From positions 1,217 through 65,216 of IMG/VR virus record IMGVR_UViG_3300037418_004154: DNA of 64,000 bases; one strand, written 5' to 3'. Under the pieces are notes generated by a model. It made no database searches. It saw only the letters and a program-made list of their open reading frames with translations, and had not been told where the DNA came from. Position 1 is the first letter of the stretch, and each line of letters opens with the position of its first letter. Of the stretch, positions 1,447 to 63,556 are shown one piece after another. Made by a program: the position numbers and the translations under genes. The DNA is from a virus. Its lineage: Duplodnaviria > Caudoviricetes.

Positions 1447-1462
1447 GTGCGGGCGCCCGCAC
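1447..1462. repeat. 16-bp perfect palindrome GTGCGGGCGCCCGCAC; 13 exact copies in the window
   Basis: Exact copies start at 1447, 5461, 14538, 23199, 27513, 30712, 40663, 46302, 47569, 54342, 56349, 61034 and 63538. Near copies at 30632 and 37182. Confidence 0.95.
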
Positions 1463-1566
1463 TACCCCTCTCCGGGGAGTGAAAACTCCAGCCCGACCCG
1501 GTCCCCGAGCTGGTGCAGGGCGATCAGGGCCTTGGCCGTCTGGGTGACGACGTCGGCCACGGCCTC

Positions 1567-3420
1567 TCACGGACGGTATCGGCTCTGGATCGCCCGAGCC
1601 CCCGGTGCCCGCGGCGTCGGATCGGCCAGGTTGGCCATCGCGGCGGTGGCGTCGGGCGGCAGGTTCTCGTTCCGCCGCCGGGCCGGGTACGGCAGGACGA
1701 CGGTCGAGTGCTCGCTGTTTTCCGAGGCGACGGTCGTAGGCCCGCCGGGCCCGACGCTCAGCGACACCTGCTGGATCCGCCCGTCGGGGTCGAGCGGCAG
1801 GATGCCCGGGTAGTGCCGGGTGTCCCCGGCCTTGACCTGGTACTGGTACGCCATCCCGTCGAGGTAGTACTGGGCCCGGTCGTTCGCCTCCTCCTCGGAG
1901 ACGACCGTGTGCCCCGTCAGGATGTGGTCCGCGCTGTACGCCCCGATCACCTCCCAGAACACGTCTTCCTTGATCGTCCACTGCGGCGGGGCGTCGCCGC
2001 CCAGGTCCATCGTCCACTCGCCGCGGACGATCTGGTTCGTGTCCGGATCGGCGACCAGGCAGGCGGTGTCGAGGACCAGGCTCGGGTCCGCCCACCGGCT
2101 ACCCCGGATCGCGTACACCGGCTCGCCGAACACGATCATCTGCTCGACCGGGTCGACCGAGAACGGGACGAACACCCGCTGGAACCGGCTGGTGTTCGCC
2201 GCCGCGTCGGCCGTCGCCCCGTTCGCCGGCAACCACAGGACGCTCCCGATCCACCGGGCGACGGACCCCCAGACGACGGCCGGCTGGTCGCGCGAGTACC
2301 CGTTGTAGAAGTCGGGCAGGACCCGGTTCGCCGACTCGCCGTTGGCGGGCTGGATGCCGGTGAAGTTCGGGGGCTGGGGGACGACCTGGTCCACCTTCGT
2401 CGGAAGTAAGGTGATCTGCTGGCGGCGGGTCACCGGCCCGTACCACGGGAGCGTGAGTGTGTCCTCCATGCCGCCCGGGTCCCGGAGGGTGATCCGGTAG
2501 CACTTCCACACCGACTCCCGGGCCAGCCCCTGGGCCTCGATCACGGCCAGCCGCTGGGTGCCCTTCACGCCCGTGAACGACGGCGGCGGGCACGTCCCCC
2601 ACCCGGTATCCGGGGCGTAGGAGAGGTCGTTGATCGGCACATACCGGCCGTCCCATTCCTTCCCGACCGGCTCGAGCAGGAACCGGGCCTGCATGCGGAC
2701 CTGCGACCCGGCGACGCCCACGCTGGCCGGAATCCTCGGGGCTTCGAGGCTCGGGGTGTCGACCTCGCACGGCAGATCGGGAATGTCCTCGCCGTCGCCG
2801 AGCTGGGCGATGATCACCCGGTCCTGGTTCGGCTGGTAGATGACCCGCCGCCCGTACTGCTCGCACAACCGGGCCAGGGCCTCGGCCGGGGGCGTATAGT
2901 CCCACACGACGGGCGGGTTGGTCTGGGACTGCGGGTAGTTCTCCCCCGCCCACAGGTACCGGTCGAGCTCGGCCCCGTCCTCCTGCTTCAGCCCTTCCGG
3001 GAGGTCGATCTCGTACCCTTCTTCCCCCATCGCGTCGAGGCAGAGGGTGGCGAGTTCCGTCGGGGAGCGGATGGTCCAGGGGATGAGCTTCTGGTGGTCA
3101 TCGTAACTGTTGTACGATCCACTGATAGATCCGAGACCCCGCCACCGCCATCGCCGGTCCTGGATCTCCAGCCGCCACGTCTGGCCCTCCGATCCGGCCG
3201 TCCCCGTGATCCGGACCAGCCGGCAGTCCCGGAAGACGACCGGTTCGTGCACCCCATCGGAGAACACCAGGTCGCCCGAATCCTCCGGGACCGCGGCCTG
3301 CGGGTAGGTGGTGAGCACGAAGGTGGAGGGCGAAATGCCGTGGGAAATACAGCCCTGGCAGCTGGCGACTCCCAGCACGCCCGGCCAGGACACGTCCTGG
3401 GAGAGGATGTCGTCAGCCAC
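1567..3420 (-). CDS. Phage tail/baseplate hub-like protein (617 aa)
   Basis: ORF with normal amino-acid composition in the leftward tail operon, upstream of the tape-measure-like gene. Function inferred from position. Confidence 0.55.
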   Translation of the reverse strand: MADDILSQDVSWPGVLGVASCQGCISHGISPSTFVLTTYPQAAVPEDSGDLVFSDGVHEPVVFRDCRLVRITGTAGSEGQTWRLEIQDRRWRWRGLGSISGSYNSYDDHQKLIPWTIRSPTELATLCLDAMGEEGYEIDLPEGLKQEDGAELDRYLWAGENYPQSQTNPPVVWDYTPPAEALARLCEQYGRRVIYQPNQDRVIIAQLGDGEDIPDLPCEVDTPSLEAPRIPASVGVAGSQVRMQARFLLEPVGKEWDGRYVPINDLSYAPDTGWGTCPPPSFTGVKGTQRLAVIEAQGLARESVWKCYRITLRDPGGMEDTLTLPWYGPVTRRQQITLLPTKVDQVVPQPPNFTGIQPANGESANRVLPDFYNGYSRDQPAVVWGSVARWIGSVLWLPANGATADAAANTSRFQRVFVPFSVDPVEQMIVFGEPVYAIRGSRWADPSLVLDTACLVADPDTNQIVRGEWTMDLGGDAPPQWTIKEDVFWEVIGAYSADHILTGHTVVSEEEANDRAQYYLDGMAYQYQVKAGDTRHYPGILPLDPDGRIQQVSLSVGPGGPTTVASENSEHSTVVLPYPARRRNENLPPDATAAMANLADPTPRAPGARAIQSRYRP

Positions 3421-3423
3421 GGG

Positions 3424-61916: not shown

Positions 61917-62957
61917 ATGCCGACGACGCTCGAACTGCAAGGGGCGGTGAAGCTCCGCAAGCTGATGCAGCTGTACCTGCCCCGGGCGATGGAGTCCCGG
62001 GAGCTGCTCAAGCTGTTCCCGCTGACCAAGGTGAACGAGACCCAGCTGATCTACGAGCGCCGGCAGGTGGAGACCGGCCTCCAGGCGGCCCGCGGGCTGG
62101 GCGGGCCGACCGGCCCGGTCCGCAAGCCCGGGCTCGACCAGTTCAAGGTCAGCCCCGGGTACTACGGGGACTTCTACTCGATCACCGAGCAGGAGTTGAC
62201 CGACCTCCGCGACAGCGGCCGGTGGGACGACTTCGAGAACTACGACAGCCAGGCCGCCCGCGGGACCCAGCACCTGACCCGCCGGTTCCTCGACCGGTGC
62301 GAGTACTCGATCGCGTCGCTCATCACGACCGGCGGGTTCCAGGCCCTGAGCGCCCAGGGGGTGGTGTACCACCAGGACGTCTTCAACATCCCGATCAACA
62401 CCCCCCCGACCCTGTTCAGCGACCTGACCGGCAGTACCCCGCTGAACTACATCCGGGACCTGATCCCGACCCTGGAGCTCGGCAAGTCGGTCAGCTTCCA
62501 GAAGGGGTACATCCTCTGCTCGCGGCCGACGGCGAACCTGATCCTGAAGAACCAGAACGCGGCCGACCTGAACGGCCGCCGCCTCCAGTACGGGCAGACG
62601 ATCAACAACCTGGAGGACATGAACGAGTTCCTGCTCTCGAACGACCTGCCCCCGCTGCGGGTGTACGACAAGGGCTACTACTCGGACCCGCCCGGCTCGG
62701 CCCCGACGTTCAACCGCTTCCTGACGAACGGGATGATGGTCGCGGTGGGCGTCCGCGAGGACGGCGAGCAGCTGGGCGAGTACCGGCTGACCCGGGCGGC
62801 CCAGAACGAGAAGGGTTCTCCGGGCGAGTGGTACCAGGTGGAGGACCGGCGGCAGAAGGACCCGTGCCAGGTCATCCTCCGGGCCGGGCACAACGGCGGC
62901 CCGGTGGCGTACTACACCGAGGGGTTCGCGGCGATCCACGCGGCCGACCCGTTCTGA
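61917..62957 (+). CDS. Major capsid protein (lambda gpE-like, 346 aa)
   Basis: Size, position, and the gpE-like pattern (LFP...RFLDRCEYSIASLITTG...PLRVYDKGY). Confidence 0.85.
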   Translation: MPTTLELQGAVKLRKLMQLYLPRAMESRELLKLFPLTKVNETQLIYERRQVETGLQAARGLGGPTGPVRKPGLDQFKVSPGYYGDFYSITEQELTDLRDSGRWDDFENYDSQAARGTQHLTRRFLDRCEYSIASLITTGGFQALSAQGVVYHQDVFNIPINTPPTLFSDLTGSTPLNYIRDLIPTLELGKSVSFQKGYILCSRPTANLILKNQNAADLNGRRLQYGQTINNLEDMNEFLLSNDLPPLRVYDKGYYSDPPGSAPTFNRFLTNGMMVAVGVREDGEQLGEYRLTRAAQNEKGSPGEWYQVEDRRQKDPCQVILRAGHNGGPVAYYTEGFAAIHAADPF

Positions 62958-63000
62958 CCCCCGCTGCCCGATTCCCCTTTGAACTCCGCGAGGATGACCG

Positions 63001-63474
63001 ATGCCGAACCTGCGAGTGCTCAAGCCCGGCCTGGGCGAACCGGGCAAGACGATCCCGGTCGGGGTGGTCGTCAACCCGCTCCTGGTCGGGGGCGGCCGGT
63101 ACCACGGCCACGTCCGGCTCGGGGTCGTCGAGGAGACCGACGACCCGGTCACCTGGGGCTCGGACGCGGCCCGCCTCGGGGGCCCGCCGGCGGACGAGGA
63201 CTCGGCCAGGGCCGAGAACGACAGACTCCGCGTCCGGCTCGCGGAGTTCGACGGGAAGCTTGCCGGCGAAGCCGCCGCCCGCAAGGCGGCCGAGGCGGAA
63301 CTGGCGAAGGCCCGCCACGACCTCGCCGCCGCCGAGGACCTGGTCAAGCAGCTCGACGCCCAGTGCAAGGTGCTGCAGGGCATCCGCACCCAGCAGCAGA
63401 TCGACGCAGGCACCCTCCAGCCGGCCGACCCGGCCCTCATCCCGCACGTCCCGCCGACTAAGATCACCCCCTGA
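63001..63474 (+). CDS. Coiled-coil hypothetical protein after the capsid gene
   Basis: GAGGA RBS; followed by the hairpin GCGGCCCGGGGA-TC-TCCCCGGGCCGC at about 63499-63526. Confidence 0.6.
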   Translation: MPNLRVLKPGLGEPGKTIPVGVVVNPLLVGGGRYHGHVRLGVVEETDDPVTWGSDAARLGGPPADEDSARAENDRLRVRLAEFDGKLAGEAAARKAAEAELAKARHDLAAAEDLVKQLDAQCKVLQGIRTQQQIDAGTLQPADPALIPHVPPTKITP

Positions 63475-63556
63475 GCAGGGAAGGCGGCCGAAAACCACCG
63501 CGGCCCGGGGATCTCCCCGGGCCGCTCGCGTTGACGGGTGCGGGCGCCCGCACCCG

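Follow-up and report, generated by a model that had tools for sequence, protein, structure and literature searches.

Dispersed palindromes in a tailed temperate phage as candidate loading sites of an orphan ParB-like protein

Introduction

ParB clamps are understood mainly as partition proteins, and it was only recently that KorB and BisD showed long-range regulation by such clamps on plasmids and on integrative and conjugative elements (ICEs). KorB, a ParB family protein of the IncP-1 plasmid RK2, has as its site the 16-bp palindrome OB, which is present at 12 sites on a replicon of ~60 kb (PMC11790492, citing Kostelidou and Thomas 2000). It loads as a cytidine triphosphate (CTP) clamp, slides and acts at a distance, with IncC (a ParA) and the clamp-locking KorA as its partners, and the OB operators are upstream of promoters, some at 4-10 bp and others at 45 bp to over 1 kb (PMC11790492). 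BisD, the ParB-like CTP clamp of ICEclc, is an orphan that has a long linker, carries an additional C-terminal domain and needs BisC (PMC12409273). Its two 23-bp palindromic sites, bisS, lie 2 kb apart inside genes, and BisD spreads over ~50 kb and controls ICEclc promoters (PMC12409273). A 2025 survey counted 872 prophage-encoded ParBs and found that the divergent clades enriched on plasmids and prophages are almost always orphan, their sites and roles being unassigned (PMC12704722). Here we analyze a 64,000-nucleotide stretch of a tailed phage genome (positions 1,217 to 65,216 of the IMG/VR record IMGVR_UViG_3300037418_004154; hereafter the window, meaning this whole stretch), in which a 16-bp palindrome, GTGCGGGCGCCCGCAC, is repeated in dispersed positions and a gene at 46239-48869 encodes a long ParB-like protein.

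The palindrome is specific to the phage element, and it co-occurs and co-varies with the ParB-like protein. Sequence comparison makes the assignment of the palindrome to this protein well supported, because the two occur together, a site lies within the gene itself, the word co-varies symmetrically with the protein lineage, and the ParB-like protein is the sole protein shared with distant palindrome-bearing phages. We consider it likely that the palindromes are dispersed parS-like loading sites of an orphan phage ParB clamp, similar to KorB-OB and BisD-bisS, and that they do not serve ParA-driven partition; the comparative evidence argues for this, while the mechanism is drawn by analogy. The original prediction, made from the letters of the window alone, had proposed either a binding-site network of the phage ParB-like protein or a set of distributed, stoperator-like operators, and the comparative evidence supports the former.

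Results

The palindrome and its placement in the window

All 13 exact copies of GTGCGGGCGCCCGCAC that the original prediction had listed were confirmed at their coordinates, and the word did not occur once in 100 dinucleotide shuffles of the window. The near copies that it had given, at 30632 (two mismatches) and 37182 (one mismatch), are real as well, but a further one-mismatch copy at 6127 had been overlooked. The window contains 15 perfect 16-nucleotide (nt) palindromes of three distinct sequences, and 13 of these 15 are the word in question. Since the flanks of the 13 copies are unrelated, the repeat unit is the bare 16-mer. Its density is one copy per 4.9 kb, and the sites are spaced 1.3-10 kb apart (mean 5.2 kb). 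They are listed below, where GGCAGGCA denotes a candidate promoter element and G131-A is one of the two prophages of genome G131 that are described further on.

1447-1462: exact palindrome; intergenic, 104 nt beyond the 3' end of the minus-strand gene 1567-3420; G131-A has the syntenic site 79697 downstream of its homologue of that gene
5461-5476: exact palindrome; divergent intergenic region, with two outward-facing GGCAGGCA elements 11 and 7 nt away; syntenic with G131-A 75080
6127-6142: one-mismatch copy GTGCGGGCGCCTGCAC, inside gene 5988-6698
14538-14553: exact palindrome; first G ends a TAG stop; GGCAGGCA element 45 nt downstream
23199-23214: exact palindrome; between convergent genes, adjoined by a separate 26-nt GC hairpin
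27513-27528: exact palindrome; between co-directional minus-strand genes, 12 nt past a stop codon
30632-30647: two-mismatch copy, overlapping the TAG stop of the integrase gene
30712-30727: exact palindrome; between the convergent integrase gene and gene 30872-31231
37182-37197: one-mismatch asymmetric variant GTGCCGGCGCCCGCAC; in the AAA_24 gene, in a Pro/Ala-rich linker, read as VPAPAP
40663-40678: exact palindrome; 12 nt past a stop codon and 39 nt ahead of the next start
46302-46317: exact palindrome; in the N-terminal tail of the ParB-like gene, predicted to be disordered, read as VRAPAP
47569-47584: exact palindrome; in the ParB-like gene, at residues 443-448 (SAGART), within a predicted disordered linker (438-451)
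54342-54357: exact palindrome; first G ends a TAG stop; a GGCAGGCA element that precedes the portal gene follows after 3 nt
56349-56364: exact palindrome; within the called gene 56270-59527, 79 nt from its called start, the true start being uncertain
61034-61049: exact palindrome; 8 nt past a stop, with the next start 40 nt further on; G131-A has the syntenic site 64693 behind its homologue of the gene
63538-63553: exact palindrome; between convergent genes, adjoined by a separate 26-nt GC hairpin

The G+C content of the window is 71%, and genes were therefore called by frame-specific GC. On these calls, 9-10 of the 13 exact copies fall in non-coding DNA, which makes up 10.9% of the sequence (binomial p ~1e-6 to 5e-8), in agreement with the earlier view that most copies are intergenic. 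The ends of the open reading frames (ORFs) likewise confirmed that the first G is the last base of a TAG stop at 14538, 30632 and 54342, and the two copies that had been placed inside the ParB-like gene are indeed read there, at 46302 as VRAPAP and at 47569 as SAGART. Every clearly intergenic copy, in the window as in G131, follows a stop codon on one strand by 0-14 nt; three intergenic copies lie at convergent gene ends. The simplest reading of this post-stop placement is that a 16-bp site was fitted into the smallest gap available, and copies that follow stop codons may have a role as roadblocks. Within genes, the word falls in Pro/Ala-rich or disordered segments, the two ParB copies being assigned by predicted disorder.

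Eleven GGCAGGCA promoter-like elements were located in the window, including those at 5442-5449 (minus strand), 5484-5491 (plus strand), 14599-14606 (plus strand) and 54361-54368 (plus strand). Four of the 11 are close to palindromes, at distances of 3-45 nt, and the remaining ones have no palindrome nearby. The association between the palindrome and these candidate promoters is suggestive only, because both are confined to the scarce non-coding DNA. Several of the elements are followed by ...GGCATSATG, and a leaderless mRNA could begin at this ATG.

Two perfect 26-nt GC-rich palindromes, which differ from each other in sequence, are present at 23160-23185 and 63500-63525, in each case 12-13 nt upstream of a motif copy and at convergent gene ends. 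Both are followed by GCGTTGA(A/C) and look like conventional terminator hairpins situated beside a ParB site.

The ParB-like protein

The gene assigned to the palindrome is the following:

46239-48869, plus strand: long orphan ParB-like gene, 876 amino acids (aa) from the upstream start and 836 aa in the database call

Its product contains a ParB_N domain at residues 42-145 (PF02195, E=6.5e-13) and a ParB helix-turn-helix (HTH) domain at residues 149-231 (PF17762, E=2.5e-6, 28.0 bits against a cutoff of 22.6), and it scored 91.2 bits against the curated ParB/RepB/Spo0J domain model TIGR00180, for which the cutoff is 58.45. A profile search against the PDB returned Spo0J (1vz0) at E=1e-51 and KorB at E=3e-11; the nearest matches of the profile are Spo0J/ParB and Noc, with KorB further off. 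Foldseek matched the first ~230 residues to solved structures of ParB, Noc and KorB. Confident stretches of the AlphaFold2 model, for which a predicted local distance difference test (pLDDT) score above 90 was noted, span residues 40-437, 452-623 and 650-728. Judged by the TIGR00180 score above cutoff and by the fold matches to ParB, Noc and KorB, the window protein is a real ParB.

A conserved four-Cys motif at residues ~293-321 is likely a zinc ribbon. The C-terminal domains are helical; outside the ParB part, no match to a family of Pfam, NCBIfam or PHROG was obtained, nor a usable atlas match, and the matches to PDB structures were limited to the ParB domains. Many of the 78 database homologues have an N-terminal tail that ends in VRAPAP or related peptides. 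The database gene call begins downstream of the 46302 copy, but the tail is nonetheless conserved in the homologues.

The nucleotide-binding patch is kept as GERRLRA, and its residues R110 and R111 are invariant in 36 homologues. In ParB proteins, the Glu and Asn of the ENxxR box III are linked to CTP hydrolysis. This box, at residues ~141-147, reads ANDQRED in the window protein as against the family consensus ENDQRED, and it is more divergent (SREQSRD-like) in the homologues from G131 and from a second genome, G001; the divergence suggests that some members of the clade may have an altered nucleotide hydrolysis. To judge from box III mutants of ParB, the ANDQR form may slow both nucleotide hydrolysis and clamp release.

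The earlier remark that no ParA is visible was borne out, since a search with AAA_31 gave no match in the record (14 of 14 controls were recovered) and none emerged from Pfam scans that covered most of the called genes. In addition, neither the window protein nor any of the 78 homologues contains the ParA-binding motif [LFI]G[KR]G[LFI]. ParA-driven partition is unlikely, because neither a ParA nor a ParA-binding motif was found and because relatives are chromosomally integrated, both in G131 and in the Variovorax phage VarioGold.

Host genomes and the G131 prophages

Whether the word is a repeat of the host was examined by scanning one genome per prokaryote species and then 151 Gemmataceae genomes. 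The species-wide scan gave single scattered matches in unrelated high-GC taxa, and one Gemmata metagenome-assembled genome recurred. No copy of GTGCGGGCGCCCGCAC was found in 148 of the 151 Gemmataceae genomes. G001 has 13 copies, spread over 12 small contigs of a 7.2-Mb assembly, and the complete 9.0-Mb chromosome of G131 has 12, of which 11 are located at 4.369-4.445 Mb and 7.557-7.623 Mb. These two clusters correspond to inverted paralogous prophage segments of ~84 kb that are ~95% identical over their main aligned blocks:

G131:C1:4360787-4445116: prophage segment
G131:C1:7556693-7631443: prophage segment

In two fetched 100-kb regions of G131, all exact and one-mismatch copies lie inside the prophage segments. 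A similar density of the word throughout the host chromosome, which the original prediction had named as the finding that would speak against it, was therefore not seen: almost all of the family's genomes have no copy, and those of G131 are prophage-confined.

Each of the G131 prophages contains 5-6 exact and 6-8 one-mismatch copies. Both also have a gene for a ParB-like homologue (39-45% identity), in which the motif occupies codons ~15-23 just as it does in the window gene. G131 has its LexA-like homologue at another place on the chromosome, outside the motif clusters. The window and the G131 prophages are strongly diverged: ~11 of the 69 window proteins have BLAST homologues there, at 26-60% identity, the DNA is barely alignable, and no gene neighboring the ParB-like gene is conserved between the two. 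At least five site positions are syntenic between them. In the AAA_24 gene, the same asymmetric variant GTGCCGGCGCCCGCAC occurs at the same offset in proteins that are 31% identical, and the other syntenic sites are in the ParB tail, after the homologue of 59571-61025, upstream of the homologue of 4690-5418 and downstream of the homologue of 1567-3420. The two co-resident prophages of G131 have the same palindrome class and would thus share one ParB specificity.

Co-variation of site and protein among relatives

We refer to the word of the window and G131 as class I and to the word of the G170 type, GTGCGGACGTCCGCAC, as class II. The latter was encountered in the DNA that encodes the ParB tail of G170, and it is the window word with a symmetric G7A/C10T double change. 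Its dispersal was predicted beforehand and then found, with seven copies in G170, three of which are on the 9-kb ParB contig. G208 has eight copies of GTGCGGACGTCCGCAC, including one inside each of two ParB-like genes. In the genomes compared, GTGCGGACGTCCGCAC has no copies in G001 and G150, and conversely GTGCGGGCGCCCGCAC has none in G170 and G208. The in-gene position of the 46302 copy is kept in both G131 prophages, in G170 and in the IMG/VR locus L176, and G001 has a one-mismatch variant there. Selection on the word acts on the DNA and not on the peptide, as had been proposed, because the tail variant of G170 is read in a different frame, as SADVRT.

A locus search with a single sequence reached only one relative, and an alignment-based search of IMG/VR yielded 80 loci with relatives that are 28-42% identical; de novo palindrome scans of these loci covered 10 kb on either side of the gene. 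A metagenome scan for relatives gave mostly short or distant canonical-ParB-like loci. Among the IMG/VR loci, L176 has GTGCGGACGTCCGCAC three times, L221 has GTCCAGACGTCTGGAC, and ~30 loci of 56-67% G+C have GTGCAGACGTCTGCAC or one-off variants of it at conserved relative positions, while rarer symmetric variants have the half-sites AAAC, ACAC, CGAC and GAGC. Symmetric site classes accompany the ParB-like protein in ~40 IMG/VR loci. Depending on the protein lineage, the center of the site is GGGCGCCC, GGACGTCC or AGACGTCT, with GTCC arms in one case. The classes cluster on the protein tree, none of 200 label shuffles being as low in changes, although the tree is a quick one and near-copies inflate the clustering.

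In the AGAC class, which belongs to the proteobacterial branch, the in-gene site lies within the codons of a conserved peptide, (S/G)ADVCT, of the four-Cys motif:

L241:10725-10740, with equivalents in ~10 other loci: in-gene site over the (S/G)ADVCT codons

In L221, the change of an arm from GTGC to GTCC coincides with the change of SADVCT to SPDVCT (Ala to Pro), and the Cys codon keeps the other arm imperfect. All motif-rich elements encode a long ParA-less ParB-like protein, and an in-gene site is usual and was found in each lineage examined. The co-occurrence of the motif and the ParB-like gene across related phages, which the original prediction had suggested checking, thus holds in motif-rich elements.

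Cultured phages and control genomes

Two cultured phages, the Acidovorax phage Aval (953 aa) and the Variovorax phage VarioGold (771 aa), encode members of the protein family in their early-left operons. Both are integrating lambdoid phages with CI-like repressors and no annotated ParA. VarioGold integrates at tRNA-Ser (PMC9658991), and of its ParB-like protein only the Pfam domain is mentioned in the paper on the phage (PMC9658991). There are ~5 sites related to GTGCACACGTGTGCAC in Aval and six related to GTGCAGACGTCTGCAC in VarioGold; in both phages these are dispersed over all modules, with one of them in the ParB gene. When the 69 window proteins were compared with these phages by tblastn, none but the ParB-like protein had a homologue in either, which rules out the methylases, the LexA-like repressor and the other BLAST-detectable window proteins as the common factor.

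Among IMG/VR records found by the word alone, those with 4-5 sites encode the ParB-like protein. As a control, two complete genomes that lack the ParB-like gene hold one copy or one tandem pair only. One 99%-complete provirus without the gene (G255; IMGVR_UViG_3300042460_002243) has two exact copies 45 nt apart, at 29266-29326. The two probably form an unrelated pair of local operators or go back to a duplication by chance.

Other features of the phage

The element is a tailed temperate phage with genes for small and large terminase, a Mu-type portal, major capsid protein E, a tail tube, an integrase and a LexA-type repressor, and the replication module of the window comprises AAA_24, Prim-Pol, DUF3987, DnaN and SNF2 genes. 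The full record is a 65,216-bp IMG/VR 'provirus', and the only sequencing runs in which the element was found are DNA runs of soil and rhizosphere metagenomes, with no RNA run among those listed. The following features were noted in addition:

29403-30632: integrase, in mid-contig, separating the tail and accessory genes from the repressor and early genes
31314-31937, minus strand: LexA-like repressor candidate, 123 bits against TIGR00498 (curated equivalog cutoff 111)
33779-33856 and 36010-36081: ARAGORN calls in the early region, the first a tRNA-Leu(CAG) and the other a tRNA-like gene whose anticodon is undefined
45178-46236: N4/N6 methylase gene directly upstream of the ParB-like gene
48866-49288, plus strand: ORF of 140 aa that overlaps the stop of the ParB-like gene and matches only the first ~100 positions of a C-5 cytosine methylase profile

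Because the integrase gene is in mid-contig, the assembly looks excised, circular or permuted, and not like a simple integrated prophage, despite its 'provirus' label. The TIGR00498 score is above cutoff, which indicates that the phage carries a true LexA-type protein and not a generic CI/S24 repressor. The short ORF at 48866-49288 may be a truncated methylase. The idea that the palindrome is a methylase target was rejected, as neither of the neighboring methylases has a homologue in Aval or VarioGold and 16 bp exceeds typical methylase sites.

Discussion

In the arrangement that we propose, dimers of the ParB-like protein would recognize the palindrome through the ParB HTH domain. The preserved GERRxR nucleotide-binding patch suggests that the clamp closes at each site and slides outward, probably in a CTP-linked manner, and with 13-16 sites at a spacing of 1.3-10 kb the whole phage genome would be within its reach. 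By analogy with KorB and BisD, its likely purpose would be genome-wide organization or transcriptional control of the phage DNA in the early or replicative phase.

Several observations weigh against this proposal. Within the HTH, no residue separates class I cleanly from class II, and the single consistent column lies outside it. Furthermore, genome G256 carries hybrid half-sites, and positions 7 and 10 may for this reason be only weakly read. Approximately half of the related loci have no recognizable repeated palindrome within 10 kb on either side, and class I and class II elements occur in different host species, so that the classes could in part reflect host lineage. The replacement of the box III Glu by Ala means that the nucleotide cycle may differ from that of the family, and the location of the intergenic copies 0-14 nt past stop codons is only tentatively accounted for.

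It appears distinctly unlikely that the palindromes are operators of another DNA-binding protein, which might be the LexA-like S24 repressor acting in a stoperator-like fashion, a small ribbon-helix-helix (RHH) or HTH protein, or a host factor. The binding boxes of LexA are 16-bp palindromes too, the window does encode a real LexA-type protein (123 versus 111 bits), and small regulators could evade BLAST between distant phages. However, the LexA-like homologue lies outside the motif clusters of G131 and is absent from VarioGold and Aval, which have CI-like repressors, and there is no copy in the repressor's own control region of ~890 bp (31938-32823); the stoperator half of the original prediction thus finds no support. 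A host factor would predict sites in the host chromosome, where essentially none were found, and phages from one and the same host family fall into both class I and class II. The probability is lower still, and indeed very small, that the word functions in RNA as a hairpin that terminates transcription or stabilizes or processes mRNA 3' ends. This would explain why the clearly intergenic copies of the window and G131 are all within 14 nt of a stop, with three at convergent gene ends. The absence of a loop, noted earlier for the element, is true of the DNA, but its RNA form can fold into a stable hairpin with a 6-bp stem and a 4-nt loop, GCGC (-9.3 kcal/mol). Against such a role, it is the sequence itself and not just the pairing that is conserved, in 13 identical copies with differing flanks, and the recurrent, position-conserved variant GTGCCGGCGCCCGCAC breaks a stem pair (-4.2 kcal/mol). 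No copy is followed by a T-run on either strand (the longest in the next 12 nt is at most 3, and usually 1), conserved copies are found within genes, and two of the convergent sites already have a separate, longer hairpin of 26 nt. Between lineages, moreover, the word changes in symmetric pairs only, and these track the ParB-like protein.

Two further explanations concern the origin of the repeat. Selfish spread, as a homing or recombination site or a miniature mobile element within phage genomes, is highly improbable. Perfect copies with unrelated flanks can result from recent spread, but the copy positions are syntenic at 26-60% protein identity, and synteny across such diverged phages indicates that the copies were retained over a long time and not inserted recently; Pfam scans of most called genes gave no transposase or RAYT-like gene, and 16 bp is too short for an autonomous or a miniature inverted-repeat transposable element (MITE)-like element. 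Finally, a genome-wide REP/HIP-type repeat of the host that the prophage merely shares has a negligible probability. After testing, nothing was left in its favor, high-GC genomes giving occasional single chance matches, and it is excluded by its absence from 148 of 151 family genomes, by the contrast between one copy per 4.9 kb in the window and 13 in the 7.2-Mb assembly of G001, and by the confinement of 11 of 12 G131 copies to two prophages.

Returning to the palindromes as loading sites of a ParB clamp, we have also considered a broader idea that seems rather unlikely to us, namely a phage 'self-chromatin' in which a long ParA-less ParB clamp, loaded from ~5-16 genome-wide sites, coats the whole replicating phage genome, as a widespread and undescribed class. 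Were this the case, the coat would serve to mark and organize phage DNA apart from the host nucleoid, to time the change to late transcription and packaging, or to protect the DNA against host defences. The window clamp, which lacks the box III Glu, might then release slowly, and site and protein would co-evolve into incompatibility-like specificity classes.

In a literature search, the three main 16-mers appeared in no searchable paper. The present analysis gives a large phage family a concrete candidate site, GTGC-N8-GCAC, together with natural variants of specificity, and two cultured, inducible phages, VarioGold and Aval, are open to direct tests of binding, spreading and function. It also shows how a candidate binding site can be fitted into coding DNA, either in disordered linkers or by overlap with a conserved four-Cys peptide.

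Comparison with known systems

Stoperators of Cluster A mycobacteriophages are asymmetric 13-bp sequences, strand-biased and identical to the operator of the immunity repressor, which occur by the dozen in short intergenic gaps. The window resembles them in having many identical short sites across a temperate phage genome, whereas its site is a perfect palindrome, is absent from 31938-32823 and does not travel with the repressor. For the plasmid-prophage N15, work by Ravin and Lane in 1999 is said to have found the IR sites dispersed over the phage genome. N15 has SopB and four such IR centromere sites (PMC7205306), and it shares with the window a phage ParB-type protein and several palindromic sites across the phage genome; in contrast, it is a linear plasmid prophage that needs SopA-driven partition, and the window family integrates and is without ParA.

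The chromosomal ParB/Spo0J-parS and Noc-NBS systems are the closest in sequence and fold, and they too have a palindromic site, which is 16 bp long in the case of parS. The spo0J gene of Bacillus subtilis itself contains a parS site, and a site of the window is likewise inside the parB-like gene. Sites of the Aval type share the center CACGTG with canonical parS (PMC12409273), but the arms differ, being GTGC in the window and TGTT in parS. The window also differs from the chromosomal systems in having no ParA, no LG(K/R)GL motif, no clustering of sites near an origin and no box III Glu.

The likeness to BisD lies in an orphan ParB-like protein with an extra C-terminal part, encoded on an integrating element and accompanied by in-gene palindromic sites. 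In the window, however, there is a site every ~5 kb as against two bisS sites, and a BisC-type partner was not identified. As for KorB, the window has neither a ParA nor a ParA-binding motif, and no conserved partner gene was seen, although no search specific to KorA was made. Its protein is nearer to chromosomal ParB/Noc (E=1e-51) than to KorB (E=3e-11) and is 2-3 times longer, with the four-Cys motif and extra C-terminal domains, and its replicon is a tailed temperate phage and not a conjugative plasmid. The window system is thus a member of neither the KorB-OB nor the BisD-bisS system. Its likeness to KorB-OB nevertheless lies in the 13-16 dispersed sites on 64 kb; three of them are 3-11 nt and one is 45 nt from a candidate promoter element, which may parallel the OB sites, some of which are promoter-proximal and others far off or inside genes.

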